Assembly: GCA_038207335.1 (NCBI GenBank)
Contig: JBBQZX010000019.1
Span: 1-64,000, forward strand
From: Chthoniobacterales bacterium
Lineage (GTDB): Bacteria > Verrucomicrobiota > Verrucomicrobiia > Chthoniobacterales > Chthoniobacteraceae
Length of the DNA stretch: 64,000 nt
Direction: 5' to 3'
Shown here one piece after another: positions 5,658 to 43,958 of this stretch. How positions within the stretch are numbered: the first letter of the stretch is position 1; every line of letters begins with the position of its first letter. The notes beneath the pieces are model-generated. The model searched no databases. It worked only from the letters and a program-made list of their open reading frames with translations, and was not told the DNA's origin. Made by a program: the position numbers and the translations under genes.

Positions 5658-6917
5658 ATGCAAAAACTCACACGACGCACCTTCCTCCGCGGCGCAGGCG
5701 TCTGCCTCGCGCTTCCGCTGCTCGAAGCCATGCTTCCCGCCCGCGCCCGCGCCGCCGCGACAGCAGCCCCCCAGCGCTTCGTCGCCATCAATATCCCGCT
5801 CAGCTTCATCCCCGCGAATTTCTTCCCGGATGTGCCCGGCGCCGACTACACGCTCAGCTCCTACCTCCAGCCGGGAGCCGCGCTCCGAGGCGATTTTACC
5901 ATCTGCTCCGGCCTCAGCCACCCCGGCGTCGACGGCGGCCACTCCGCCGAGAAATCGTTTCTCACAGCAGCGCCGCAGCCCGGCTCCCGCTCGTTCAAAA
6001 ACACGATCTCCCTCGATCAATTCATCGCCCGCCAGATCGGCGACCGCACTCGCTTCGCATCGCTCACGCTCGGCGACCACTCACTTTCATGGAGTGAAAA
6101 TGGCGTCTCCATTCCCGCCGAGCACTCTCCGGCGAAAGCCTTCAGCCGCCTCTTCCTCACCGGCAAGCCGGGCGAAATCGCCGCTCAAGAGCGCGACCTC
6201 GAAGACGGTCGCTCGATCATGGACACCGTCCTCGGCGACGCCAAAGCCATCGAGCGCAGCGTCGGTGCCGCCGATCGCCAGAAGCTCGATCAGTTCTTCA
6301 CCGCAGTCCGTGAGACCGAGCAGCGGCTCACGAAATCGCAAGCATGGACGCACACGCCGAAGCCTGTCGTTGATGCCAGGCCACCCGAGAAACTCGACGA
6401 CGCAGACCTCGTCGGCATGTTCCGCGCGCACTTCGATGTCATCCGCCTCGCCCTCAGCACCGACTCTACGCGAGTCGTCGCGCTAGGCGGCACCGGCTAC
6501 GGCACCGTCCCGAAAATCAAAGGCGTGGAGCAGGGCTACCACGGCCTGTCGCATCACGGCAAAAATCCCGAGATGATGCGCCAGCTCGAACTCGTCGAGC
6601 GCGCCACGCTCCAAGCCTTCTTCGACTTCCTCGCCGCCCTCAAAGCCAGCGCCGAAGACGACACCCATCTCCTCGGCCGCACGCAAATCCTCTTCGGCAG
6701 CAACCTCGGAAACGCGAGCGCTCACTCGACCACAAATTTGCCGATCCTCCTCGCGGGTGGCGCGCATCGCCACGGCAAGCACCTCGCCTTCGACCCGGTC
6801 CAAAATCACCCGCTGCCAAACCTCTTCGTCAGCGTCCTCCAGCGCGCCGGCCTCGAAGCCGCCTCCTTCGCCAGCAGCACGGGCACCCTCACGGGCCTCG
6901 ACCCCGCTCGCGGCTGA
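5658..6917 (+). CDS. DUF1552 family protein (Tat signal)
   Basis: TRRTFLRGAGVCLALPLLEAM; YHGLSHHG; GSNLGNASAHSTTNLPILLAGG; usual partner of DUF1592. Confidence 0.9.
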   Translation: MQKLTRRTFLRGAGVCLALPLLEAMLPARARAAATAAPQRFVAINIPLSFIPANFFPDVPGADYTLSSYLQPGAALRGDFTICSGLSHPGVDGGHSAEKSFLTAAPQPGSRSFKNTISLDQFIARQIGDRTRFASLTLGDHSLSWSENGVSIPAEHSPAKAFSRLFLTGKPGEIAAQERDLEDGRSIMDTVLGDAKAIERSVGAADRQKLDQFFTAVRETEQRLTKSQAWTHTPKPVVDARPPEKLDDADLVGMFRAHFDVIRLALSTDSTRVVALGGTGYGTVPKIKGVEQGYHGLSHHGKNPEMMRQLELVERATLQAFFDFLAALKASAEDDTHLLGRTQILFGSNLGNASAHSTTNLPILLAGGAHRHGKHLAFDPVQNHPLPNLFVSVLQRAGLEAASFASSTGTLTGLDPARG

Positions 6918-30436: not shown

Positions 30437-31840
30437 TCAAGTAATGATTTCTTTAATCGGGCCGCCTTCCTCCACCAGCTTCATGGTTCGTCCCAGCGTT
30501 TCCACTTTCATCTTTTTAGGGTCGAGGCCGACTTGATGCAGGATCGTGGCGTGCAGATCGCTGTAGTAATGCGGCGAATCCACGGCCTGGTATCCCACTT
30601 CATCGGTGCCGCCGTGAACGATGCCGCCCTTGATGCCTCCGCCGGCCATCCATGAGGTGTAACCCTTCGGATTGTGATCGCGCCCCGTCGTGTTCTGCGA
30701 CCAGGGAGTGCGGCCAAATTCACTCGTCCAAACCACCAGCGTTTCATCCAGCATCCCGCGCTGTTTCAAGTCCCTGATCAATCCAGCAATCGGCTTGTCT
30801 GTCGCATGGCAAAGTGGTCCGTGCGTTTTCATGTCGCCGTGGGAATCCCACGCGCCGTTGCCGCCGCCGGCATGACAAATCTGGATGTAACGCACTCCCC
30901 GTTCGGCCAGTCGGCGCGCCATCAACAGTTGTCTGCCGAATTCCTCCGTCTCTCTCTCGTCGATTCCGTAGAGAGCTTTCACATGTTCGGGCTCGCCCGA
31001 AAAATCCACCGCCTCCGGCGCGGAAAGCTGCATGCGCGCGGCCAATTCGTAAGCCTTCGCACGGGCTTGGATATCCGAATTGATCGCGTAACGTTCACGG
31101 AACTCCTGATTCATCGTTTGCAGGAATTGCATCTGCCGCTCGCGCTCGGTCCTCGATCCGCCTTTGGGCGGATAAAGATTCGGAATGGGTGTTTCGCCCG
31201 CCTGGAACGGAGTCGCGGCGACGGATGCGCCGAGGTAACCGCCGGTCAATTGCACCGGCGACGATGGCCGGCCGAGATTGACAAACGTCGGCAGATTCTT
31301 ATTGGCGCTGCCCAAAGCATAGGAAACCCAGCTTCCAAAAGTCGGATGATCAAAGGCCCGACCGCGATGGCCGGTCTGGGTTTCAATCACTGCCGGGAAA
31401 TGATTGCCCTCGTGGCTCCCCATCGAGCGGACGATCGCGATTTCATCGATCACACCGCCCACCTCGGGAAACCAATCGGAAACCGGAATGCCCGATTTCC
31501 CGTAGCGCGTGAAGGTGCGCAGGCTTGGAATCACCGGCCGTTGCATCGCGGCGAGATTGTCACCAAAGCCAATCGCATCGATAAGTTTTCCCGCCCACTT
31601 ATTGTCCTTGGGATCGAAGGTATCGATGTGGCTGACTCCGCCGCACATAAAGAGAAAAATCACCGACTTGGCTTTGGCCACGTGGTGTGGGCCAATCACA
31701 ACATCCTGGATTTCGCCCGCTTCCGCCCAAAGACCGCCGAGCGCGAGTCCTAGAAATCCGCCGCCGATCTGATGGATAAAGTCGCGCCGCGCCAGGCGTC
31801 CGCAGGGATAGAGTTCTGAAATCCGGGAGCTATTGGACAT
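30437..31840 (-). CDS. DUF1501 family protein
   Basis: RRDF Tat-like motif; AKSVIFLFMCGGVSHIDTFDPK; SEFGRTP; GRDHNP. Confidence 0.92.
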   Translation of the reverse strand: MSNSSRISELYPCGRLARRDFIHQIGGGFLGLALGGLWAEAGEIQDVVIGPHHVAKAKSVIFLFMCGGVSHIDTFDPKDNKWAGKLIDAIGFGDNLAAMQRPVIPSLRTFTRYGKSGIPVSDWFPEVGGVIDEIAIVRSMGSHEGNHFPAVIETQTGHRGRAFDHPTFGSWVSYALGSANKNLPTFVNLGRPSSPVQLTGGYLGASVAATPFQAGETPIPNLYPPKGGSRTERERQMQFLQTMNQEFRERYAINSDIQARAKAYELAARMQLSAPEAVDFSGEPEHVKALYGIDERETEEFGRQLLMARRLAERGVRYIQICHAGGGNGAWDSHGDMKTHGPLCHATDKPIAGLIRDLKQRGMLDETLVVWTSEFGRTPWSQNTTGRDHNPKGYTSWMAGGGIKGGIVHGGTDEVGYQAVDSPHYYSDLHATILHQVGLDPKKMKVETLGRTMKLVEEGGPIKEIIT

Positions 31841-34000
31841 AGAAAAACTCGTCCAGATTAAAGAGGAGCCAGGAAAGCTGTTTCAGCCGCGAGGCGTCGC
31901 TTTCAAGATATTCGAGCGCTGTGTTCCTTTCCCTAGTCGAAGGCGGACGCGAGAGCGTCACTCGATAGGCGAGATCGACCGACGACGGCAGATCGCCAGT
32001 AGTTTCCTTTTGCAAACGCGACGCCAAATCGGAGCAAACTTTATCCACGTCGGGGCTGTTCATCAAAAACAGCGCTTGGGGAGCCGTGACCGTTTGCGTG
32101 CGCAGAGAACAGGGCGCGCGACCGTCGTCCACATCGAACGTTTGCAGGAAATTTGGCGTCACCTCGCGGCTGGAAGAATATCCGCGCACCAGGTAGGCGC
32201 CGCGCCGTTGGAGATTCGCGTCGCTGCCGGCGAACGAGCGGCGACGACGATTTCCGCCGTCACCTTCACTTAAACTAAAAGATGGGCCGCCTACTTTCAA
32301 ATCCAGATCACCGGCCGCCGAGTGCATGGCATCCCAAATGGGTTCCGCTTCCAGACGCTGCAATCGAAAACGCCACAGAAGGATGTCGCTCGGGTCAATC
32401 TTTTGACTTCCCGCATATTCGTCGCCCGCCTCCGAAGTCCGCTGGTAAGCGTCGGAGGTGACCATCAACCGGTGCATCTGCTTCATGCTATAACCGCACT
32501 GCACAAACTCTGCGGCGAGCCAATCCAACAAAGCCGGATGTGATGGCTTGCCACCGAGTTCGCCGAAATCGCTCGTGGTCCTCAAAAGACCTTCGCCGAA
32601 GTGCCATTGCCATAAGCGGTTCACGGCTACTCGCGCGAAGAGCGAATTGTCCGGCGCGGTCAGCCAGTCCGCAAATGCCTCGATACGACCGTCGCGAAAA
32701 TCCGGTTCCGAAGTCGCAAAGGGCCAGCCTGGTTTGACTTCATGACTCGTTTCGGGACGCAAAGGATCGCCACTCGTCAGGATGTAACTCTTTTCCTGCG
32801 CGCGCATCCCATCCGCCTCCACGGTATAAAACACCGGCAGTCTCGGCCCGCGGCTTCCGGCAGTGGAACCTTCCGCATTTAATTGACTCTGCATTTCCTG
32901 GTATTTCCTGCGGGCCTCCTCGGGCATCGATTCGGTGAGCTTGTCGCCATCGATGCGCAGGATGGGGAAATAGTCGTCCGCAATTTTTTGCTCCTCGACC
33001 GTTCGCTGTTTCTCCGGCTTGCGAATGACTGCCTGCGCCTCGGGGGGCAGCATCAGCACGCGTTCCTCGTAGAGTTTCGCTTGGTAAGGCGCAGCAAAGT
33101 CGCTCACGGCCTTTTCCAAGGGCGCGCGTTTCTTCTCCGCTTCCGCCATCGCTTTTCCAGCAGCGATCAGGTCCGCCGAACTTGCGAGAGTGATCTTGCT
33201 CAGGACCAGCGGATCGAACAGCGCCTTCATCGCGTAGTATTCCTTCTGCGAAATCGGGTCATACATGTGGTCGTGACATTTCGCGCAACCCACCGTCATG
33301 CCCATGAACGCCGTCGAAACCGTTCGGTAGCATTGATCGCCAGATCCTGCGGATCCTCGCCAGTACCTCGCGCCAGGAGACCGAGGGCAAATTCATCGCC
33401 AGGTCGCGGCTCTTTGCGCGAACGATAACCCGTGGCCGACATTTGCGTGCGCTCATTGGCGCGGCGACCGGTGAGTTGAAGTTGCACAAACTGATCGTAA
33501 GGCACGTCGTCGTGCAGGGCGTTGATGACCCAGTCCCGCCACAAATAGATCCCGGGCGCTGCCGTCATCCGCTCATCTGCGTCCGCATAACGCAACACGT
33601 CCAACCAATGCCGCGCGTAACGGACCGCGTGCTGCTCATCGGCGAGAAGTCGATCGACCACTTTGTCGTAAGCGTCCGTCGAATCATCCGCCAGAAACGC
33701 CTCCTGCACTGCCGGCGACGGCGGAATGCCAACTAGGTCGAGATAGACGCGACGCAACAGTGATAGCTTATCCGCAGTGCCTACTGCTTTGAGTCCGCGA
33801 TGCCTGAGTTCCGCATTGATGAAACGATCGATCGGGTTGGCTTCGGGACCGTCCGGCAACGCGGGTCGCACGACCGGTTTCAACGACCACCAACCCTCGC
33901 CCTTGGCCTTATTGGTGGGCGTCTCGCCGGTTGCAGTCAAAATCGAAGCGCCGAGAAAAATGATCCAGAGCAAAGCTTGGTTTGGAATTTTTCGGGTCAC
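31830..34000 (-). pseudogene. DUF1549/DUF1553 protein with a 1-nt frameshift at ~33323
   Basis: NPIDRFI, RHWLDVLRYAD...DLAINATE | (T)VSTAFMGMTVGCAKCHDH, ARVAVNRLWQWHFG; GAA CG GTT lacks one A. Confidence 0.8.
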
Positions 34001-34506
34001 GAGATTGCCTCTACCATAGATGCCGCCATCGGTCCTTGGCGATCATTTGCTTGCTCCGACCGATCTGATGCGCGGCCGGGATTAAAAAACTGAACCAGTG
34101 GTGACGATCCAGTGCCGACGCTGAAGGTTTTCGCGCCGCCGCCGTCCCAAAGCCAGCGCGGGGAAGATGGACCGAAGCTACTTCAGATGCCGCCTGAAAA
34201 TGCATCTCGAATTCTCCCGACAGCGTCGGGCATTTCTCGACACACCATGTCAAATTTCCTGCCAAATACGTGGTAGGAAAGTGGCGGTTGATGGCGTCTT
34301 TTGGCGGACAAACACTAGGGCCGCGAAGATCACCACATCGCCCGCATGCCTGCTATTGCGGCGATTGGCGGACATTGACGCCAAAATGCCTCTTGATAAC
34401 TGGAAAGTTCGCCCCCTAGGCTCCACTTTCTTAACCGATCGGGTGCGAAGCGCGAACCGTTCGCCAACGAAGGTTGATCGGCTCGCGGTTGGTCGGTAAA
34501 AGCGAA

Positions 34507-34536
34507 CGGGGCTGGCGATTGGAATCGCCAACCCCG
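34507..34536 (-). terminator. Probable intrinsic terminator after the fasciclin gene
   Basis: CGGGGTTGGCGATT-cc-AATCGCCAGCCCCG followed by TTCGCTTTT on the minus strand. Confidence 0.65.
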
Positions 34537-34549
34537 CGCACAGAACATG

Positions 34550-35032
34550 TTACGGGATGAGAACGGTGTCGATGACGTGGATGACGCCGTTGCTCGCGGG
34601 GATGTCGGTCTTCACGACGTTGGCGGCACCGACGGTCACTTTTCCTGCATCGACCTTGATGGCCAATTCTTTGCCGTTCACCGTTTTGGCGTTCATGGTT
34701 TTCACATCCGCGGCCATGACTTTTCCAGCGATAACGTGGTAGGTCAGGATCGCCGTGAGCTTGTCCTTGTTCTCAGGCTTGAGCAGGCTATCGACCGTGC
34801 CTGCGGGGAGCTTTGCGAATGCTTCGTCGGTAGGTGCGAAGACGGTGAACGGCCCTTTGCCGCTCAGGGTATCAACCAAGCCGGCGGCTTTCACCGCGGC
34901 GACGAGCGTATTGAACTGGCCAGCGCCGGCAGCGACGCCGACGATCGTCTTCTCTTCCGCTGCGGAAAGATTGGAGGTGAGTATGGTTGACACCGTGGCG
35001 AAGGCCGCGGCGATGATGGCGAGTTTTTTCAT
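34550..35032 (-). CDS. Secreted fasciclin (FAS1) domain protein
   Basis: Signal peptide; [30 protein letters not shown]. Confidence 0.95.
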
Positions 35033-35440
35033 AGGTTTGTTGCTTTGTTTGTTTGTTTAGTTTCGAGGGACGATGATTCGTTCTCGTGGGAAGCCAAACG
35101 CTTCATGCCATGGAGGCGGGTGCGTTTTTATTTTGTGAAAATTCGCTCGGAATTCGCATCCAATTGCCTGCGCCGGGCGTTCGCGCGCAACGCGAGTTAG
35201 TCTGTCTGGCAGTCTTGGCGAATCTGCCCGGATTGTTCGCGAATCGCGGCTTTCTACTCTGTGGTGAGGCGTTGGAGATAGCGCACTTGCATGACGATGT
35301 GCTGGCTCTTCGCGAGTTCGACCTCGCGGCGCAGGAGGAAGTCCCGATTCAAAAAAATGCACTCCCGGAGGTATCCAGAGCAGGCGGAGCGGCGTATTCT
35401 CTTCTGTTCAACACCTTATCTCGCCAATTTTTCCGCTCCA

Positions 35441-36016
35441 ATGCTCAACGAATTCCTGCAAAACCAAGCCGCACTCTACGCGGCCGGGACAATGACGACG
35501 CAGGAGCGCGAGCAGTTTGAACTCGTCCTTGAATTTCAGCCTCAAGCCCGGGAACTGGTCGCCGGACTCGCGGAGATTGGAGCTGCGGTCATGCTGTCCA
35601 CCCAGCCACCTGCGAGCGCGGCGCCTTCGACGGGACTCAAGGAGCGCCTTTCTGCCCTGATCGCCGACCGCCCGCAGCATTCCACGCCCGTGGGCATGGT
35701 GATGTCCGGCCCGGATGGCCTCGTGCAGTGGATCAATCCTGCCTTCAGCGCGATGTGCGGATACACCCTCGAAGAGCTGCGCGGCAAGAAGCTCGGCCCG
35801 ATCTTGCAAGGCGTCGGGACCGATCGCGAAACGGCGGAGCGGATGCGTCGCGCTGTGCATGAAAACCGCCCGTGCAGCGAGACGATCCTCAATTATCATA
35901 AGGACGGCACGCCATACTGGGTCGAGGTCGCCATCACGACGATCCTCGATGACGCGGGTCAGCCCCTCTGGCTCGTCGCGCGCGAACGCGAAATCACCGA
36001 CTGCATCGCGGCGTAA
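35441..36016 (+). CDS. Putative soluble anti-sigma factor: RskA-like N-terminal domain fused to a PAS (LOV-like, Cys-less) domain
   Basis: N-terminus AALYAAGTMTTQEREQFELVL...ARELV.GLAE...APSTGLKERL; C-terminus WINPAFSAMCGYTLEELRGK..PILQG..TD...NYHKDGTPYW; no transmembrane helix. Confidence 0.7.
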   Translation: MLNEFLQNQAALYAAGTMTTQEREQFELVLEFQPQARELVAGLAEIGAAVMLSTQPPASAAPSTGLKERLSALIADRPQHSTPVGMVMSGPDGLVQWINPAFSAMCGYTLEELRGKKLGPILQGVGTDRETAERMRRAVHENRPCSETILNYHKDGTPYWVEVAITTILDDAGQPLWLVAREREITDCIAA

Positions 36017-36024
36017 GCGGCGCG

Positions 36025-36600
36025 CTAGAGTTCGGGGCCGATCACGTCCTTGAGCTTCGACATTCCGCGGCGAATCCGAGCCTTGATCGTGCCGAGCGGT
36101 TCGCCGAGGCGCTCGGCGATCTCCGTTTGCGTGAGGGAGGAAAAGAACGCGAGCTCGATGGCCTCGCGCTGGTCTTTCGAGAGTTTTTGAATCGCCTCGC
36201 GGACCAGCTTGCTCGTCTCTCCCGATGCGACCGCATCGAAGGAACTTCGGTCGTCGAACTGCTCAACCGTCTCCGACTCGCGCTGCATGTCGTCCTGCAG
36301 GCGGCTCCGGCGCTGCGTCGAGCGCAGACGGTCGATGGCCTTGTTGCGGGTGAGGGTGACTGCCCACGTGATCGGCTTGCCGCGGGTCGGGTCGTAGAGC
36401 GGTGCCTTTTCCCAAATCTGGATGAACGCATCCTGGAGCACATCCTCTGCGGCTTCCTGATTGTTCACCACGCGGTAAGCGATGGAAAACAGCACGCCCG
36501 AAAAGCAATCGTAAAGCTCCTCGAAAGCCCGCCGGTCACCCTGCGCCACCCGACGCAAAAGCGCGATCTCGGCTTCGAGTTGCTGGGGGTCGGGTTCCAT
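36025..36600 (-). CDS. ECF sigma factor, SigK-like
   Basis: GDRRAFEELYD, AEDVLQDAFIQIW, YDPTRG, RNKAIDRLR, ELAFFSSLTQTEIAERLGEPLGTIKARIRRG. Confidence 0.9.
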   Translation of the reverse strand: MEPDPQQLEAEIALLRRVAQGDRRAFEELYDCFSGVLFSIAYRVVNNQEAAEDVLQDAFIQIWEKAPLYDPTRGKPITWAVTLTRNKAIDRLRSTQRRSRLQDDMQRESETVEQFDDRSSFDAVASGETSKLVREAIQKLSKDQREAIELAFFSSLTQTEIAERLGEPLGTIKARIRRGMSKLKDVIGPEL

Positions 36601-36785
36601 GAGCGCCGAGAATGGTGGAACCAAGGCGTGCCAACAATACAAACCGGGTTTGCCTCCGCCGCGGCTCGGGAGTCGTTCCGTGCTTCAGCCGGCCGAGGGA
36701 TGAACGATGTGAATTTGAGGCGTCTGGTCTGCAAACGCAGACGTTTCGCATCCGTGACATACGGCACAAAACCAAATCCAATTCC

Positions 36786-37001
36786 ATGAAACCCGCCCAA
36801 CTCAAACTGCTCAGCAATCTCTGCTTCATCCTCGGCTTTGCTTCCATCTTCGGCTCGATCGCCATCTGGTTTCTCACCGGGGGGCAGGCCATCGACACTC
36901 AGGCGCACGCTGAGCGATTCGGCATCTTCGTCGGTCTCTGGGCACCCACGTTCTTCATCCTCTCAAATCGCTTCGACCGCTACGCGGAAAAAGTGGGCTG
37001 A
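36786..37001 (+). CDS. Small two-helix membrane protein
   Basis: 71 aa; hydrophobic segments flank AHAERFGIFVGLWAPTFF; A/C-rich leader. Confidence 0.75.
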   Translation: MKPAQLKLLSNLCFILGFASIFGSIAIWFLTGGQAIDTQAHAERFGIFVGLWAPTFFILSNRFDRYAEKVG

Positions 37002-37114
37002 CCTTTCCCGACGTGACTCCTCCGTCGTTGACCCGCGTGCTCAGTTTCCAAAACGGCGGCGGCGTTTTGCATTGGAGTAGTATGGCTGGCGCGTGCCAAG
37101 TTCCCCTCTCGTCT

Positions 37115-39382
37115 ATGAAAGCTTCCTCCCGTTTGCTTGCCGTTGCGCTGTCGTTTTTGTTTTTGGAAAGTGTTGGGCCAGTGCGGGGGGTGGAGGATTC
37201 GGCGGCGGCGAAGGCGCGGGCGGCGAAAGGGGAGGCTCCGCCGACGAAGGGCTCGGAGATGCTGTATGGGCCGGTGTTTGAGGACAGCGTGCAGATTTCG
37301 CCGAAGGTGCCGGTGGCGGCGAAAGGGTTGGTGGTGCGGCTCGGGGGCGCGAGTGTTTGCTATGATACGGATGGGCTGCGGATGGCGGCGTTTTGGACGG
37401 TTGGGTTTCTGGATTTCAGGCACACGAATGTGGGGACTTACAAGGGCGACGGGACGGGCGCGACGACGGTGGCGGGGGATGTGCGGGTGCGGACGGAGGA
37501 TGGGCCGGGGTTTGGGGTTGATCCGACTTTCACCGATCCGCGGGCGACGAAGGCGGGGCCGTTGCCGCGGGAACACGGGCACTTTGCGGGTTACTATTTG
37601 CACGAAGATCGCGTGATTCTTTCCTACACGGTGGAGGGGTGCGCGATGCTGGAAATGCCGGCGTTTGCGAGCGATGGGGAGCGTGGGATTCTCATTCGGC
37701 ATTTCACGGCGGGGCCCAGTGCGAAGGCGCTGGAGGTGCGGCTCGCGGATAGGGAGCAGGGCAAGACTACGACGATCGGGGCTGTGTCGGTGGATGGGAG
37801 CAAGGAGGGATTTGCGATCAGCGAGGTGGGGGATCGGACGCTTTATTTGCATGTGCCGGCGCACGAGCAGGCGGTGAATTTCGCGGTGGCGATTTGGACC
37901 GGGGACGCGGTGCAGCCGCCGGTGGATTTGGGGAAGGCGATCGGGCCGTTGCAAAATCTCGCGGTGCTTTGCAAGGGCGGGCCGGGGCGGTGGGCGGCGA
38001 TCCCGGCGCTCGCGGGGACGGTGGCGAAGGATGACGCGGCTTATGTCGTGGATTCGATTCCGCTGCCGGTGGTGAATCCTTGGAACTCTTGGATGCGCCT
38101 TTCAGCGTTCGACTTTTTTGCGGACGGGCGGGCGGCGGTGGCGACGCTGAATGGCGACGTGTGGATCGTGTCGGGGCTGGATGCGAAGCTGGAGCACGTC
38201 ACTTGGAAGCGCTTTGCGGTGGGGCTTTACGAGCCGCTGGGGTTGAAGATCGTGCGCGGTGAAATCTATGTGCACGGGCGGGATCGGATTACGCGGTTGC
38301 ACGATCTCGATGGGGATGGGGAGGCGGATTTTTATGAGTCGTTCAACAGCGACAGGACGCTTTTCCCGAGTTATCACGCGTTTGCTTTTGATTTGCAGAC
38401 GGACAGCAAGGGGAATTTTTACTATGTCGTCGGCGGGAATCAGCTCGGGGTGAAGCGGGACTGGCATGCGTCGCTTTTCCGGGTGTCGCCGGATGGGGCG
38501 AAGACGGAGGTGGTGGCGACGGGCTTCCGCGCGCCGAATGGGATGGGGATCGGGCCGAATGATGAGATCGCGGTGGGCGATAATCAGGGGCACTGGATTC
38601 CTTCGAGCAAGGTGAACATCGTGAAGCCGGGCGGCTTTTACGGGCATGTGGCCGATCCGCGCATCGATGCGAAGGCGGTGGGGCCGAAGACTTTCGATGC
38701 GCCGTTGCTTTGGATTCCGATGACGATGGATAGCTCGACGGGCGGGCAGGTGTGGGTCACGGGGGGAAAGTGGGGGCCGTTTGATGGGAAGATGCTGACG
38801 ACTTCGTATGGAAAGAGCGCGCTGTTGGGGGTGCTGGAGGAGAAGGTGGAGGGGGTGGCGCAGGGTGGGGCGTTTGTTTTTCCGCTGAAGTTTGACTCGG
38901 GGATCATGCGGGCGCGTTTTTCGCCGGTGGATGGTCAGCTTTATGTGGCGGGGTTGCGCGGGTGGCAGACGAATGGGACGGCGGACGGGTGTTTGGAGCG
39001 CGTGCGCTACACCGGGAAGCCGGTGCTTTTGCCGACGGGGCTGCATGTGGGGAGGGATGCGCTGACGATCGGCTTTGATGTGGCGTTGGACCCGGCTTAT
39101 GGGAATGACGCGGCGAATTTCTCGATCGAGCAGTACAATTATAAGTGGTGGAGCACGTATGGGTCGCCGGATTTGTCGGTGGCGGACCCGGCGAAGAAGG
39201 GGCGCGATGCGGTGGAGGTGACGGGGGCGAAGTTGTCGGGGGATGGGAAGAGTGTGACGCTGACGGTGCCTGGGCTGGCGCCGGTGATGCAGATGGAGGT
39301 GAAGTGGCGGCTTCGGTCGGCGACGGGGGCGGAGGTGAAGGGGGTGCTGGGGAATACGATTGCGAAGGTGCCGACGGAGTAG
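37115..39382 (+). CDS. DUF6797-like secreted protein with sugar-dehydrogenase-type beta-propeller
   Basis: Signal peptide; YGPVF..AAKGLVVRLG; GLYEPLGL, DLDGDGEADFYE, TGFRAPNG, DNQGHW. Confidence 0.7.
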   Translation: MKASSRLLAVALSFLFLESVGPVRGVEDSAAAKARAAKGEAPPTKGSEMLYGPVFEDSVQISPKVPVAAKGLVVRLGGASVCYDTDGLRMAAFWTVGFLDFRHTNVGTYKGDGTGATTVAGDVRVRTEDGPGFGVDPTFTDPRATKAGPLPREHGHFAGYYLHEDRVILSYTVEGCAMLEMPAFASDGERGILIRHFTAGPSAKALEVRLADREQGKTTTIGAVSVDGSKEGFAISEVGDRTLYLHVPAHEQAVNFAVAIWTGDAVQPPVDLGKAIGPLQNLAVLCKGGPGRWAAIPALAGTVAKDDAAYVVDSIPLPVVNPWNSWMRLSAFDFFADGRAAVATLNGDVWIVSGLDAKLEHVTWKRFAVGLYEPLGLKIVRGEIYVHGRDRITRLHDLDGDGEADFYESFNSDRTLFPSYHAFAFDLQTDSKGNFYYVVGGNQLGVKRDWHASLFRVSPDGAKTEVVATGFRAPNGMGIGPNDEIAVGDNQGHWIPSSKVNIVKPGGFYGHVADPRIDAKAVGPKTFDAPLLWIPMTMDSSTGGQVWVTGGKWGPFDGKMLTTSYGKSALLGVLEEKVEGVAQGGAFVFPLKFDSGIMRARFSPVDGQLYVAGLRGWQTNGTADGCLERVRYTGKPVLLPTGLHVGRDALTIGFDVALDPAYGNDAANFSIEQYNYKWWSTYGSPDLSVADPAKKGRDAVEVTGAKLSGDGKSVTLTVPGLAPVMQMEVKWRLRSATGAEVKGVLGNTIAKVPTE

Positions 39383-39513
39383 GCGGCGCGAACACAGAGG
39401 AGGTTGCCAGAGGCGTTTGCAAGGAACGTCATTGGACACTCGCGAAAACCGACCGGTCAGGGGTCCCGACGAGCGGTCGGTGACGGGGGTGGTTCGGAAG
39501 GGCGGGTGCTTTT

Positions 39514-39846
39514 TTACAGAGGGTGGCTCTGGCTTTCGAGGTTGAAGAGCCGGGGAAGTTCGAGGGTGGTGGGGCTGGCGTCGGGGTTGGTGTCCATGAG
39601 GCCGCTCATGTGGAGCCACCAGCGCTGGCAGATTTCGGTCTGGGCGATGGCGTCCCAGAGGATTTGATTTTCGTACTCCACGGTGGCGAAGAGCTGGAGG
39701 GTGTGCGGATGGAGGAAGATGCTGTAGCGGTGGACGCCGTGGACGCGGAGGACGGAGGCGAGGTCGGGCCAAATGGGGTTGTGGCGCCGGTGGTATTCTT
39801 CTTCGGCTCCAGGGAGGAGCTGCATGACGAAGGCTTTGCGGATCAT
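39514..39846 (-). CDS. rhaM: L-rhamnose mutarotase
   Basis: RKAFVMQL, EEYHRRHNPIWP, YSIFL, CQRWW..M. Confidence 0.9.
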   Translation of the reverse strand: MIRKAFVMQLLPGAEEEYHRRHNPIWPDLASVLRVHGVHRYSIFLHPHTLQLFATVEYENQILWDAIAQTEICQRWWLHMSGLMDTNPDASPTTLELPRLFNLESQSHPL

Positions 39847-40895
39847 GAGTGGGGTCGGGCGGGGCCGATGCTTTCGCGGGGGATGAAGGTGGTGGCGAAG
39901 GTGGCGCTGTGGATGGTGGGGTCGGGGTGGGAGGAGTTGATGCGGGCGAGGAGGAGGGCGGCGGTTTTGCGGGCCATGTCTTCGATGGGCTGGGCGATGG
40001 TGGAGAGGGCGATGGGGAGGTGGCCGGAGAGGGGGATATCATCGACGCCGACGATGGAGAGGTCGCGGGGGACGGTGAGGCCGCGGTCGGCGGCGGCGCG
40101 GAGTGCGGCGATGGCGGAGAGGTCGTTGAGGGCGATGAGTGCGGTGGGGAGGCTGTGGGCGCGATTTTCGAAGTAGGTGGAGCAGGCGTCGCGGGCTTCG
40201 GTGATGGAGGGGCCGGAGCGGAGGAATTCGAAGCCGCTGTTGCCGATGCCGCGTTCGGCGAGGAGCTGGCGGAAGAGGCCGGGGCGGTCGCCGTCGGTCT
40301 GGCCTTCGGAGAGGGCGCAGAGGAATGCGAAGCGGCGGTGGCCGAGGGCGCAGAGGGCGTCGATGGCCTGGGCGAGGCCGGTGCTGAAGTCGGTGAGGAT
40401 GCTATCGACGGGGAGTGCGGGGCCGCCGACGAAGCTGAGGATGGCGAAGGGGCGCTGTTTTTCGAACTGAAGGGCGAGGAAGTCCCGGTGAGCTTCGCCG
40501 TCGCTGAGGAATGCGGCGACGCCATCGATCTGACGCTCGACGATGTCTTCGAGGCAGTGGCGTTCGCGGTCGAGGGAGGTGCGCCAGCTTTCGATGATGA
40601 GGTCTGAGCCGGCGCGCTGGGCTTCGATCTGGAGGAGGTCGGCGAAGGTGGTGTAGAAGGGGTTGTGGAGGTCGGGGAGGAGGAGGCCAATGGTGTTGCT
40701 GCGGCCCATGCGAAGGGCGATGGCGGCGCGGTTGGGGCGGTATCCAAGGTCGGTGGCGGCTTGGAAGACGCGGGCTTCTGTGGCTTTGGAGGCCCAGGAG
40801 TTGGCGCGTTTGTTGAGGATGGTGGAGGCGGTGTTGATGGCGACGCCTGCGCGGGCGGCGACGTCTCTGAGCCGGATTTTGGACGCGTCCTTCAT
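39843..40895 (-). CDS. LacI family transcriptional regulator
   Basis: LRDVAARAGVAINTAS, LGYRPNRAA, NDLSAIA, VPRDLSIVGVDD, LSTIAQP. Confidence 0.92.
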   Translation of the reverse strand: MKDASKIRLRDVAARAGVAINTASTILNKRANSWASKATEARVFQAATDLGYRPNRAAIALRMGRSNTIGLLLPDLHNPFYTTFADLLQIEAQRAGSDLIIESWRTSLDRERHCLEDIVERQIDGVAAFLSDGEAHRDFLALQFEKQRPFAILSFVGGPALPVDSILTDFSTGLAQAIDALCALGHRRFAFLCALSEGQTDGDRPGLFRQLLAERGIGNSGFEFLRSGPSITEARDACSTYFENRAHSLPTALIALNDLSAIAALRAAADRGLTVPRDLSIVGVDDIPLSGHLPIALSTIAQPIEDMARKTAALLLARINSSHPDPTIHSATFATTFIPRESIGPARPHS

Positions 40896-41033
40896 GGTGG
40901 TTTGGGTGTGAGCGGGGTGGAGAGTGCGTGGGGGCGACGGGTGCCTCAAGAAGTTTCCTGTGATGGCTTGCCGCGAGGGGGAAAAGGCGTTCATTGTGCG
41001 GGCTGTTTTCCTCCCGCTATTCCTCTCAAAGTC

Positions 41034-43958
41034 ATGCGCTTTCTCCCGCTGTTTTTTTTGGTGCTGCTGCCGACCGCGCAGGGGGCGCCGGTGCAGTTTA
41101 ATCGCGATATTCGCCCGATCCTGAATGGGCACTGCGTGAAGTGTCACGGAGGGGTGAAGGAGGCGGGGAAGCTGAATTTGCAATTCCGCGAGCAGGCGCT
41201 GCGGGCAGGGGAGACTGGGGAGATCGCGGTGGTGCCGGGGAAGCCGGAGGAGAGCGCGTTTATGGATCGGCTGACGACGGACGATAAAATGGACCGGATG
41301 CCGAAGAAGGAGGCGCCTTTGCCAAAGGAGAAGATCGAGCTGCTGCGGCAGTGGATCGCGGAGGGGGCGAAGTGGCAGAAGCATTGGGCGTATGAGCCGC
41401 CGGTGGCCGTGGGGAAGGGGATCGACACGATCGTGGGAGAGCATTTGGAGCGGGAAAAGCTGAGCTTTTCGCCGGAGGCGGATGTGCGAATCCTGGCGCG
41501 GCGGATGTCGTTTGATCTCGTGGGGCTGCCGCCGGAGACGGGGCGCGTGGATGCGCTGGAGAAGGAGGCCACGACAGATCGCGAAGGGGCGCTGCGGAAG
41601 TATGTTGACGAATTGCTGGCGATGCCGGCGTACGGGGAGAAGTGGGCGGTGCCGTGGCTGGACTTGGCGCGCTACGCGGACAGCAAGGGCTACGAGAGCG
41701 ACCGGCTGCGGGATATGTGGAGGTATCGGGATTGGGTGATCGATGCACTAAATGGGGATATGCCGTATAGCGAGTTCGTGGTGGAGCAACTGGCCGGGGA
41801 TCTTCTGCCGAACGCGACGGGGGAGCAGGTGATCGCGACGGCTTTTCATCGAAATACACCGCAGAATGACGAGGGCGGGACGGACGATGAGGAGTTTCGC
41901 ACTTACGCGGTGATCGACCGGCTGAATACGACGTTCGATGCGCTGCAGGGGACGTCGATCGGGTGCGTGCAATGTCACGGGCATCCTTACGATCCGTTCG
42001 TCCATGACGAGTATTACAAGCTGATGGCGTTCTTTAATAACACGGCGGATGCGGATCGGAACGACCAGGCGCCGACGCGGAAATTCCGTTCGCGCACGGA
42101 CGAAGCGCACGGCGTGGAGGTGGAGTCGCAGGTGGCGGCGGAAGAAGCGCAGGTAAAAGTCGGCGAGGAACTTCCTGAGGCGAAGAAGGCATTCGCCGAT
42201 TGGCTCGGAGGGCTGGGATCGGAGCGGGATTTCGCGCCGCTGAAAGACGTGGGCGTGGAGAGCACGCAGGGGAAATATCGAGTGGAGGAAGATGGGCGCA
42301 TTCATCTCGAAACGCCCGTGCCGCCGCGCTCGACGATCACGGTGACTGCCGCCGTGACGGAGGGGAAAATAGGTGCCCTGGCGGTCGAGGCGCTGCCTGA
42401 TGACAAGCTGCCGGGCCACGGGCCGGGCGGGAATGGGATCGGGAATTTCATCCTGACACGCATCCGCGCGGTAGTGGTGAGTGGCGGCGTCGAGACGCCG
42501 GTAGAGCTGTCCGAGGCGAGTGCGACTTACGAGCAGAAGAACTGGCCGGTGGCCGCCGCGCTGACGGAGGGCGTGAGCAAAGTGATCCCCGGAGAAGGCG
42601 AAAGCGGGTGGGCAATCGCGGGCGCGACCGGCAAGCCGCAAACCGCGATTTTCACGCTGAAAAAGCCGCTTACGATGCCTGCCGACGCGCAGCTCCGCGT
42701 GACGCTGGAGTGCGAGAACGAGAAGTGGGAACAGCATGTCCTCGGGTCATTTCGCATCGCCACGACGGTGGGTGTCGCATCTGAGAAAGTCGCGGCTTTG
42801 CCAAAGGAAATCCGCGACATCGTGGGGCGCAACGCGAAGAAGTGGAAACCCGAGGAGCGGGCGAAGCTGGAGCGCTATTTCTTCGCGGGCCTCGATCAAA
42901 AAGTGACGGCAGCTTACGAGGACATTGACCGCAAGAAGGCCGAGCTCGCGGCGATGGCGCTCTGCGAGCTGCCAATCATGCAGGAACTCAATGGGCAGGC
43001 GGCGCGCAAGACGAATGTCTTTCATCGCGGCAACTGGCTGGACAAAGCCGAGGAGGTGCAGCCCGCGACGCCGCAAATCTTGAACGCGTGGCACGACGAC
43101 TATCCGAGCAACCGGCTCGGGCTCGCGGAGTGGCTGACGAATGGCGAGAACCCGCTGACCGCCCGAGTGCAGGTGAATCGCGTGTGGGAGCAACTCTTCG
43201 GGATCGGGCTCGTGGAGACGCTCGAGGACTTCGGCTCGCAGGGGGACGAACCGCGGTATCAGGACTTGATGGACGATCTCGCGGTGCGCTTTCAGGGCGA
43301 GATGAAATGGAGCCAGAAGGCGCTGGTGCGCGAGATAGTGCTGAGCCGTGTGTATCGGCAGTCGTCAAAAGCGACGAAGGAGGAAATGGAGCGCGACCCG
43401 GCGAATCGCGACCTCGCGCGAGGACCGCGCTTTCGCCTGAGCAACGAACAAATCCGCGACCAAGCGCTGGCCTTGAGCGGACTTCTGAGCCGCAAGATGT
43501 TTGGCAAGCCAGTGATGCCTTATCAGCCGCCGGGCACATGGCTCACGCCGTATGAGGGCGTTGATTGGAAGACCTCGCCGGGCGAGGACTCGCACCGCCG
43601 TGCGATCTACACCCTCATCCGCCGCAGCGCGACTTACCCGAGTATGGTGACGCTCGACGCGCCGAGCCGGGAGTTTTGCGTCGTCCGGCGCACGCGCACC
43701 AACACCCCGCTGCAGTCGCTCGATCTGCTCAACAGCCCGGTCTATATGGAAGCCGCCGCCGCATTCGCAAAGCGCATGACCGAGCCCGGCGGCACGCTGG
43801 AAGACGAACTCGCCCGCGGCCTTGCGCTCGCCACTCAGCGCCCCGCGCGTCCGGACGAGATCGCGATCTTAGAAAAGCTCCACGTCAGCACCGGCGGCAG
43901 CATGACGCTCGTCGCGAATGCGATCCTCAATCTCGATGAAGTGCTCACGAAAAACTAA
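41034..43958 (+). CDS. Planctomycete cytochrome c + DUF1549/DUF1553 protein
   Basis: [46 protein letters not shown]. Confidence 0.9.

Follow-up and report, generated by a model that had tools for sequence, protein, structure and literature searches.

A soluble candidate anti-sigma protein with a LOV-derived PAS domain, encoded opposite a SigK-like sigma factor gene in Chthoniobacterales

The stretch of DNA considered here (the window) comprises positions 1 to 64,000 of contig JBBQZX010000019.1, from assembly GCA_038207335.1 of a Chthoniobacterales bacterium. It contains two convergent genes of equal length (Table 1). One specifies a protein, called ASD-PAS here, in which a putative anti-sigma domain (ASD) is fused to a PAS domain related to light-oxygen-voltage (LOV) domains; the other specifies a sigma factor of the extracytoplasmic function (ECF) class that resembles SigK of Mycobacterium. 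The layout given in the initial annotation holds: 8 bp separate the ASD-PAS stop (TAA, 36014-36016) from that of the sigma gene (CTA on the plus strand, 36025-36027), and a fasciclin gene and a small membrane-protein gene point outward from the pair. Most close homologues of ASD-PAS are 191 aa in length, and the start is therefore placed at 35441; the ATG at 35291, which opens a longer reading frame, was rejected on the same ground. Neither an intrinsic terminator in the 8-bp gap between the two genes nor a sigma-70-type promoter anywhere across 34300-37200 was detected. The interpretation developed below, which we regard as probable, is that the soluble protein sequesters its own SigK-like sigma, with the PAS domain as a cytoplasmic input, feedback through the promoter of the anti-sigma gene, and turnover that is likely to be carried out by ClpXP.

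Table 1. Genes, domains and candidate signals of the ASD-PAS locus (coordinates within the window; residues are those of ASD-PAS unless stated)
Feature	Position	Strand	Basis or remark
ASD-PAS gene (191 aa, anti-sigma domain + PAS)	35441..36016	+	open reading frame (ORF) list
Putative anti-sigma domain, residues 1-80	35441..35680	+	helices 4-15, 20-32, 34-53, 66-75; non-zinc
LOV-derived PAS domain, residues 81-187	35681..36001	+	Pfam PAS_9; Foldseek
C-terminal Ile-Ala-Ala, candidate ssrA-like ClpXP degron	36005..36013	+	homologue conservation
SigK-like ECF sigma gene (191 aa)	36025..36600	-	convergent with ASD-PAS gene
Candidate ECF-type promoter of ASD-PAS gene, GTATCCA-N15-CGTAT	35371..35397	+	~44 nt before ATG
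Distal second motif copy, GCATCCA-N15-CGTT	35156..35181	+	position weight matrix (PWM) score 14.9 in genome scan
Candidate ECF-type promoter of fasciclin gene, GCACCC-N16-GCGTTT	35096..35123	-	~64 nt before ATG
Fasciclin-domain gene	34550..35032	-	160 aa, N-terminal signal-like hydrophobic stretch; Pfam Fasciclin 8.6e-43
Small ORF	36612..37001	+	probable true start M58 at 36783; divergent from sigma gene

The pattern of an RskA or class I anti-sigma domain had been noticed in the first ~75 aa of ASD-PAS, and several independent kinds of comparison point the same way. The strongest link is a profile-profile alignment (hhalign) with the N-termini of five verrucomicrobial RskA proteins, each of which carries RskA_C (E 1e-16 to 1e-18) and is encoded directly after a SigK-like sigma gene; the match (98.3% probability, E 2.1e-14) runs over 73 columns spanning all four helices. 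BLASTP likewise gives homology to an anti-sigma domain (36% identity over 73 aa, E 3e-6). The NCBIfam model 'antisigma' (NF052375) matches residues 10-83 with E 3.7e-7 and 30 bits, below its whole-protein cut-off of 100 because the match covers only the N-terminal third of the model. A profile of 40 N-termini finds two matches at E<=10 in the PDB, the better being the anti-sigma factor RslA (3hug_B, E 0.0057). When residues 1-82 were searched against 1.84 billion cluster representatives, 57 proteins matched at E<=1e-3; the 20 checked by Pfam were mostly ~190-aa PAS proteins of the same family, or fragments, and the 57 include a 276-aa RskA_C protein (P0174) and a 377-aa zf-HC2 protein (P0161). 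Longer fused forms were sought among proteins of 336-2000 aa and none appeared at E<=0.01, which is weak evidence.

Modelling agrees with these comparisons. AlphaFold2 yields the four helices of Table 1, with a pLDDT (per-residue confidence) of 86.9 for the domain alone and 85.1 at full length. Foldseek places RslA, ChrR, RskA and RsiW at ranks 1-13 (E 0.12-1.6, probability 0.47-0.99); VIA-align, run over 48,161 chains, puts RslA (Z 6.7), RskA 4nqw_B (Z 6.3; root-mean-square deviation [rmsd] 3.4, 67 aligned) and RsiW (Z 6.0) at ranks 1-3, with MucA at 5 and RseA at 10. A check of the N-terminal fold had been proposed at the outset, and its outcome, a four-helix model with anti-sigma structures at the head of both rankings, favours the original suggestion. 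Two absences reported there are also borne out. The HxxxCxxC zinc motif is missing: the positions that align with the RslA ligands are V29, Q33 and A36, and in the family most homologues have His at 33 while the consensus at 36 is Leu. There is no transmembrane helix in the protein (Kyte-Doolittle 19-residue maximum 1.13, versus 1.82 in a true RskA), and Pfam finds no RskA_C (PF10099) in it. Judged by sequence, residues 1-80 are best described as a non-zinc class I anti-sigma domain (ASDI) of RskA ancestry.

This domain is predicted to bind the neighbouring SigK-like sigma. Each of three complex predictions with the sigma and residues 1-82 reached an ipSAE (interface score) of 0.85, while the highest of three controls scored 0.00; the solved SigK-RskA structure 4NQW resembles the complex, however, and the score may reflect that likeness instead of binding by this pair. 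Contact agreement between runs was at least 93% and partner pLDDT at least 85; the sigma alignment had 45 rows, and the mark applied is one that 116 of 157 solved complexes pass, as do 2 of 215 mismatched pairs. In the models, helices 1 and 3 lie on sigma-4 (148-191) and helix 4 on sigma-2 (19-93). The interaction that had been put forward is thus predicted, with the caveat just given.

How widely is the arrangement kept? At E<=1e-3 ASD-PAS has 670 homologues. The best 120 are 68-100% identical to it and, if named, go by 'PAS domain S-box protein', 'Blue-light-activated protein' or 'hypothetical'; the ESM Atlas clusters carry PAS names only. The family is unannotated and, among the genomes searched, confined to Verrucomicrobiota. 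All of 80 loci taken from GTDB species genomes belong by title to metagenome-assembled genomes (MAGs) of that phylum, mostly Chthoniobacterales. Within the family of the source genome, the gene is present in 56 of 151 genomes, spread over 16 of 29 genera, in up to three copies; in a phylum-wide sample it was present in 9 of 401 genomes, seven of the nine being among 35 genomes of one other family (f10).

Synteny could be scored at 73 of the 80 loci, those with at least 700 nt downstream. In 53 of them a convergent SigK-like sigma gene, its product 66-92% identical to the window sigma, lies no more than 160 nt from the aligned end, and nine further loci have it at 620-2016 nt, for a total of 62 of 73 within 2.1 kb. 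The co-occurrence with an ECF gene that the initial annotation proposed to survey is therefore found, and the arrangement is far beyond chance, given 670 homologues and a convergent sigma in so many loci. MAGs with two or three ASD-PAS copies mostly retain one sigma per copy. Of the 62 loci whose upstream sequence runs to at least 2.5 kb, 18 have a fasciclin gene there on the opposite strand.

Some individual loci depart from the simple pattern. MAGs with several pairs are represented by L026/L046/L049, L008/L052/L056, L016/L038, L029/L031 and L040/L047; the paralogous pairs differ in the variant of the -35 element (GTATCC vs GCATCC), which hints at insulated parallel channels. At L058 a TPR-like gene (5660-6415, plus strand, ~250 aa, secreted) sits between ASD-PAS and the convergent sigma; gaps of 881-920 nt are also seen in L055, L056, L059 and L061, the insert having been examined at L058 alone. 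At L041 (5364-6053, minus strand) an orphan ASD-PAS gene lacks a nearby sigma but has the ECF motif 60 nt before it; the convergent ORF behind it looks by eye like a peroxiredoxin or BCP-type thiol peroxidase, possibly a hint of a redox context.

Upstream sequences suggest what the sigma recognizes. Of 75 loci, 59 have the motif G[TC]A[TC]CC[AG]-N15/16-CGT[AT] ahead of the ASD-PAS start (shuffled mean 1.8), and 48 of 61 matches are 59-79 nt upstream of the start. Before the fasciclin start, [CT]A[TC]CC-N15-17-CGT[AT] occurs in 17 of 21 upstream regions, at 72-92 nt (shuffled mean 0.25). The fasciclin gene thus shares an ECF-type promoter with the anti-sigma gene, which gives substance to the earlier suggestion of a link between fasciclin and a SigK-like system. 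Where the fasciclin gene is 227-272 nt upstream, the sole motif before ASD-PAS is GCATCC...ACGTT at -107 to -154. No ECF motif was found in 54 upstream regions of the sigma gene or in 10 of the small-ORF gene. In the 5.17-Mb genome the site before ASD-PAS is the best PWM match (23.9 vs 21.0 for the next), being itself one of the 73 training sites; 48 matches score at least 12, and for those at 21.0, 19.4 and 17.2 the downstream gene is unconvincing by a crude ORF reading. The fasciclin gene is the single PF02469 match in the source genome. The regulon appears tiny, consisting of the anti-sigma gene and one fasciclin gene.

These promoters fit what is recorded for related sigma factors. The consensus GYATCC-N16-CGTW of the ASD-PAS and fasciclin genes agrees with the published motif type of groups ECF18 ('TGCATCTT in -35 and CGTA in -10') and ECF19 ('ATC in -35, CG or TG in -10'), and fasciclin genes are recorded in ECF18 and ECF214 contexts (Casas-Pastor 2021 supplement). 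The mpt70/mpt83 loci are under SigK control in mycobacteria (PMC4105308). In family f10, GCATCC-N16-CGTA precedes five of five canonical sigK-rskA operons; among 14 RskA-linked sigmas of the source family, three match a relaxed pattern and one has a match with GCATCC. Taken together, the neighbouring sigma probably reads GYATCC-N16-CGTW, its targets being the anti-sigma gene and the fasciclin gene, and its own gene would not be autoregulated.

The description of the sigma as SigK-like stands in one sense and falls in another. Pfam recognizes Sigma70_r2 (7e-21) and r4_2 (3.5e-14); the best NCBIfam match is SigK PRK09646 (1.3e-48, 165 bits, cut-off 226) and the best PDB match SigK 4nqw_A (5.3e-27). 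Plain orthology with SigK did not survive: in a quick IQ-TREE of 65 sigmas, rooted for drawing only, 45 ASD-PAS-linked sigmas fall on one side of a branch of length 0.63 with SH-aLRT 100. The partner thus appears from its sequence to belong to a separate paralogous clade beside the RskA-linked sigmas.

A natural supposition is that ASD-PAS has taken the place of RskA, which would give the two a complementary distribution. RskA_C is found in 49 of the 151 genomes of the source family, and the sigma alongside it (14 loci) is 36-50% identical to the window sigma. Both ASD-PAS and RskA_C are present in 27 genomes, ASD-PAS only in 29, RskA_C only in 22 and neither in 73. Replacement was rejected on these counts, which indicate parallel modules. 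The source genome itself has one ASD-PAS gene and one close sigma (the next best is 34% identical). No RskA_C (PF10099) match was found in this 94.7% complete genome, in a search whose control was detected in 3 of 14 genomes; a search with a verrucomicrobial RskA protein was also empty, a result that carries no weight. Family f10 presents another situation (L083-L088, L094-L098): the ASD-PAS gene is unlinked to a sigma and has a TTGAC-like -35 element upstream, and the single SigK-like sigma is encoded in an autoregulated sigK-rskA operon. The RskA-controlled sigma of f10 could thus have the PAS protein as a second anti-sigma, a soluble one.

The conserved C-terminus of ASD-PAS bears on how the protein might be removed. 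Among the best 120 of the 670 homologues, 106 end in Ala-Ala (VAA 59, IAA 26, AAA 12, LAA 8), as do 58 of the 80 loci; the background figure for long ORFs is 91 of 6005 (1.5%). The last eight residues are modelled as disordered (pLDDT ~50). The source genome has clpX (603 bits) and a transfer-messenger RNA gene (contig C41, 1035-1392, minus strand; aragorn) with the tag peptide ANDYEDLALAA. The fragment of RseA that ends in VAA appears only after two membrane cleavages; in ASD-PAS, by comparison, the candidate degron is genetically encoded on a full-length soluble anti-sigma. The [V/I/L]AA end resembles the LAA of the host ssrA tag and the end of sigma-AntA of Streptomyces, and ClpXP needs the terminal Ala-Ala to recognize and degrade both ssrA-tagged proteins and sigma-AntA (PMC7142297). 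The conserved [V/I/L]-Ala-Ala therefore likely makes the anti-sigma a ClpXP substrate.

A more elaborate version supposes that a cytoplasmic signal, once sensed by the PAS domain, leads it to expose or hide the ssrA-like [V/I/L]AA tail, so that the anti-sigma is destroyed by ClpXP in a single step. We give this a minor share of the probability. If true, a degron-gated anti-sigma replaces the cascade of regulated intramembrane proteolysis that frees SigK from RskA, and the system is a duplicated, rewired SigK module with feedback only through the anti-sigma gene.

What the PAS domain might perceive is best approached through its ancestry. Pfam PAS_9 covers residues 83-178 (E 7e-16); in the PDB the best phmmer matches are all LOV domains (CagFbFP 4.6e-17, PpSB1, phototropin LOV1), and the model superposes on CagFbFP with an rmsd of 0.9 A over 105 columns at 35% identity. 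The Foldseek top 50 are all LOV domains. The NCBIfam families for YtvA and LOV kinases match at E 3e-16, far under their cut-offs. In LOV domains the Arg after the adduct Cys, two Asn and the I-beta Gln contact the flavin. Here the core GxNCRFLQG reads GKKLGPILQG, with a one-residue insertion in the flavin-binding helix. When the window protein is taken together with 11 distant members (32-45% identity), all 12 have Gly at the adduct-Cys position. One still has Arg at the next position, where the other 11 have Pro or a different non-basic residue; Val takes the place of the FWN Asn in 11 and Ala in the twelfth, and 11 have Glu for the I-beta Gln. The same substitutions hold across a 51-sequence alignment. 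The LQG Gln, the TD pair, the F-alpha Arg and the first Asn (NY.K.G) are retained.

The initial annotation was thus right about a single LOV-like PAS domain without its photoactive Cys, and its suggestion of flavin or light responsiveness is not supported. Replacement of the Cys, of the phosphate-binding Arg, of a flavin Asn and of the I-beta Gln throughout the family makes flavin or light sensing unlikely. It can nevertheless be supposed that the domain still binds flavin mononucleotide or flavin adenine dinucleotide and signals by photoreduction or redox state; engineered Cys-less LOV domains can signal by flavin photoreduction. The LOV matches and retained residues just listed speak for such a sensor, and PDB titles list CagFbFP Q148E and C85A variants as flavin proteins. 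LitS members of ECF18 and ECF19 govern light responses (Casas-Pastor 2021 supplement). Set against the family-wide replacements and the helix insertion, these points leave a flavin sensor quite improbable.

A second candidate for the input, which would name the signal within the reading we prefer, is a thiol or redox switch: oxidation or modification of PAS residues C106 and C145 would alter the conformation and free the sigma. C106 (MCGY) and C145 (PCxE) are invariant in 51 of 51 aligned sequences; in the set of the window protein plus distant members, all 12 have C106 and 10 have C145, and aligned LOV structures have Thr and Ile at these places. Redox sensing is frequent among soluble anti-sigma factors (PMC7406223). 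Mycobacterial SigK senses redox through two cysteines of sigma-4 (Casas-Pastor 2021, text and supplement); the corresponding positions of the window sigma are Ala and Val, so that any redox input would need another site. However, by position C106 is in the C-alpha helix and C145 at the start of the G-beta strand, and the two need not be close; conserved Cys may be structural or ligand-binding, and the zinc motif is absent. A thiol switch is accordingly a rather doubtful choice, though a better one than flavin.

A third possibility dispenses with a ligand. Many PAS domains have no known ligand, and this one might be a dimerisation or stability module. Control would then be purely kinetic: the anti-sigma would be synthesized under the sigma and removed by ClpXP by way of its Ala-Ala tail, and inputs would influence either the capacity of the protease or the promoter that drives the sigma gene. 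The conserved AA end, the disordered tail and the presence of an ECF promoter on the anti-sigma gene but not the sigma gene are all consistent with this. On the other hand, conservation is very high at the positions lining the PAS pocket (the full-length alignment has 23 invariant columns, 17 of them within residues 95-161), which argues for a specific ligand or partner surface; and the distant members, which retain the PAS signature, mostly lack the tail (2 of 11 have AA). We hold this account improbable.

The preferred reading, in which the PAS domain is the input and the sigma would be released in one step, can now be set out. Through its N-terminal RskA-type domain, the soluble 191-aa protein would clamp the SigK-like sigma of the convergent gene; a cytoplasmic signal would be perceived by the LOV-derived PAS domain, and the sigma would be released; the freed sigma would transcribe the fasciclin gene and the anti-sigma gene from GYATCC-N16-CGTW promoters. 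Negative feedback would operate through the anti-sigma alone, because the sigma gene has no ECF promoter. The level of anti-sigma would be set by sigma-dependent synthesis against ClpXP proteolysis, because its C-terminal [V/I/L]-Ala-Ala likely makes it a ClpXP substrate. The homologies and folds of the domains, the synteny and the conservation of promoter motif and C-terminus are observed; sigma binding, the identity of the sigma that reads the motif, the input role of the PAS domain and proteolysis are deduced from them.

Several observations weigh against this account. The loci used for synteny are close kin (at least 52% identity) and not independent, and 11 of the 73 have no sigma nearby. 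Among the 11 distant members a SigK-like sigma is near one, and none has the promoter motif. RskA and ASD-PAS are not complementary across the 151 genomes, and in five f10 genomes the only close sigma (44-49% identical), elsewhere in the genome, has its own RskA. The disorder of the C-terminal tail in the model may mean that the AA end is always exposed. Structural scores for the anti-sigma domain are weak in absolute terms, with no Foldseek E<=1e-3 and no VIA-align Z of 8 or more; modest scores are as expected for an 80-residue helical domain, and the ranking is uniform. The likeness of the modelled complex to 4NQW has been mentioned. Covariation between the domain and the sigma (mutual information with average product correction, 45 pairs) gives the predicted interface no excess of high-ranking column pairs (17 in the top 100, 16-22 expected), a result that is uninformative because the interface is nearly invariant.

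One way to account for such exceptions is to suppose that ASD-PAS is not the cognate anti-sigma at all: its helical N-terminus would have another use, or would titrate a different sigma such as an RskA-linked paralogue, and adjacency would reflect shared regulation. The 11 orphan copies and the missing covariation signal can be cited for this, as can f10, where the gene is unlinked and has its TTGAC-like element while the sigma has RskA. But homology to RskA extends across all four helices, the sigma is present in 62 of 73 loci, the predicted complex scores 0.85 against 0.00, paralogous pairs in one MAG each retain their own sigma, and the source genome has no detected RskA_C or second close sigma. 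Non-cognate pairing is, on this balance, very improbable, the least so favoured of the accounts considered.

Sequestration of the sigma by its convergently encoded partner can be compared with systems already known. The nearest is SigK-RskA of Mycobacterium (ECF19, 4NQW): among solved structures the sigma matches SigK best, the non-zinc anti-sigma domain aligns to RskA, the promoter is of the ATCC...CGT type, and a fasciclin gene is the likely target here as mpt70/mpt83 are for SigK. RskA, however, has a transmembrane helix and RskA_C; its gene follows sigK in one transcript, and regulated intramembrane proteolysis removes the protein. In ASD-PAS a PAS domain replaces the helix and RskA_C, the genes are convergent, the sigma gene is not autoregulated through the motif, and the sigma-4 redox cysteines are lacking. 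The plan of a soluble ASD joined to a cytoplasmic sensor domain recalls ChrR-SigE of Rhodobacter (ECF11), ChrR being among the top structural matches, and soluble fusions in ECF19s19 and in ECF19s7/s18, the latter joining a zinc-binding anti-sigma (ZAS) domain to the N-domain of mycothiol maleylpyruvate isomerase (Casas-Pastor 2021 supplement). In those proteins the sensor is a cupin or DinB-like domain and a zinc motif is mostly present, whereas ASD-PAS pairs a non-zinc domain with a LOV-type PAS; 35% of ASDs are soluble and 72% of soluble ASDs are zinc-binding (PMC7406223). A LOV-type PAS also acts upstream of an alternative sigma in YtvA-stressosome-SigB and in LOV histidine kinase-PhyR-NepR-EcfG, but by partner switching or phosphorelay and with the flavin-binding Cys retained; in ASD-PAS it shares one polypeptide with the anti-sigma domain and has lost the Cys along with other flavin contacts.

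Soluble class I anti-sigmas with sensor domains are thus already known; the PAS domain as that sensor is new among the literature found. No PAS-fused anti-sigma was found there, including the Casas-Pastor 2020 and 2021 main texts and the available part of the 2021 supplement; the initial annotation likewise knew of no characterised anti-sigma with this architecture. In the available part of that supplement the whole word 'PAS' is used just two times, in each case of histidine kinases; later parts could differ.

ECF sigmas are a very large class of bacterial signal transducers, and the signal, with the route by which it arrives at the anti-sigma, is known for few groups. With an input domain fused directly to a soluble anti-sigma domain, a small regulon and a defined promoter, the present system would be compact and easily reconstituted, and suited to asking how a PAS domain controls sigma release. 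In evolutionary terms, a SigK-type system would have been duplicated and would have swapped the RskA_C membrane sensor for a cytoplasmic one, both versions coexisting in many genomes. The names that databases give the family, 'PAS domain protein' or 'blue-light-activated protein', hide its putative regulatory role from annotation. Synthetic circuits could make use of a ligand-controlled orthogonal sigma/anti-sigma pair.

The surroundings of the module call for brief comment. Homologues of the small ORF start aligning at its residues 47-58, so M58 is its probable start; the product would be a two-helix membrane protein of ~72 aa (Kyte-Doolittle 19-residue maximum 2.28) with no family match in Pfam or NCBIfam. 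A homologue is found downstream at the same place in 11 of the 80 related loci, and the gene is an accessory neighbour. Farther to the left, a DUF1549/DUF1553 (PSCyt2-PSD1) gene at 31830-34000 (minus strand) seems split into ORFs 33296-34000 and 31830-33305, which overlap by 10 nt. This is likely a frameshift, an assembly error or a pseudogene, because the PSCyt2 profile is divided across both ORFs, positions 1-145 in the former and 175-206 at the beginning of the latter. An intact PSCyt2-PSD1 paralogue with PSCyt1 lies at ~41079-43958 (plus strand) and a DUF1501 gene at 30437-31840 (minus strand). GC skew is ~0 before 36500 and jumps to +0.3 to +0.42 within 37000-41500. Long minus-strand ORFs rich in Pro, Ser and Ala (e.g. 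38102-40747, 881 aa) resemble antisense artefacts of G-rich plus-strand genes, which beyond the module include one for a DUF6797 protein (37013-39382).

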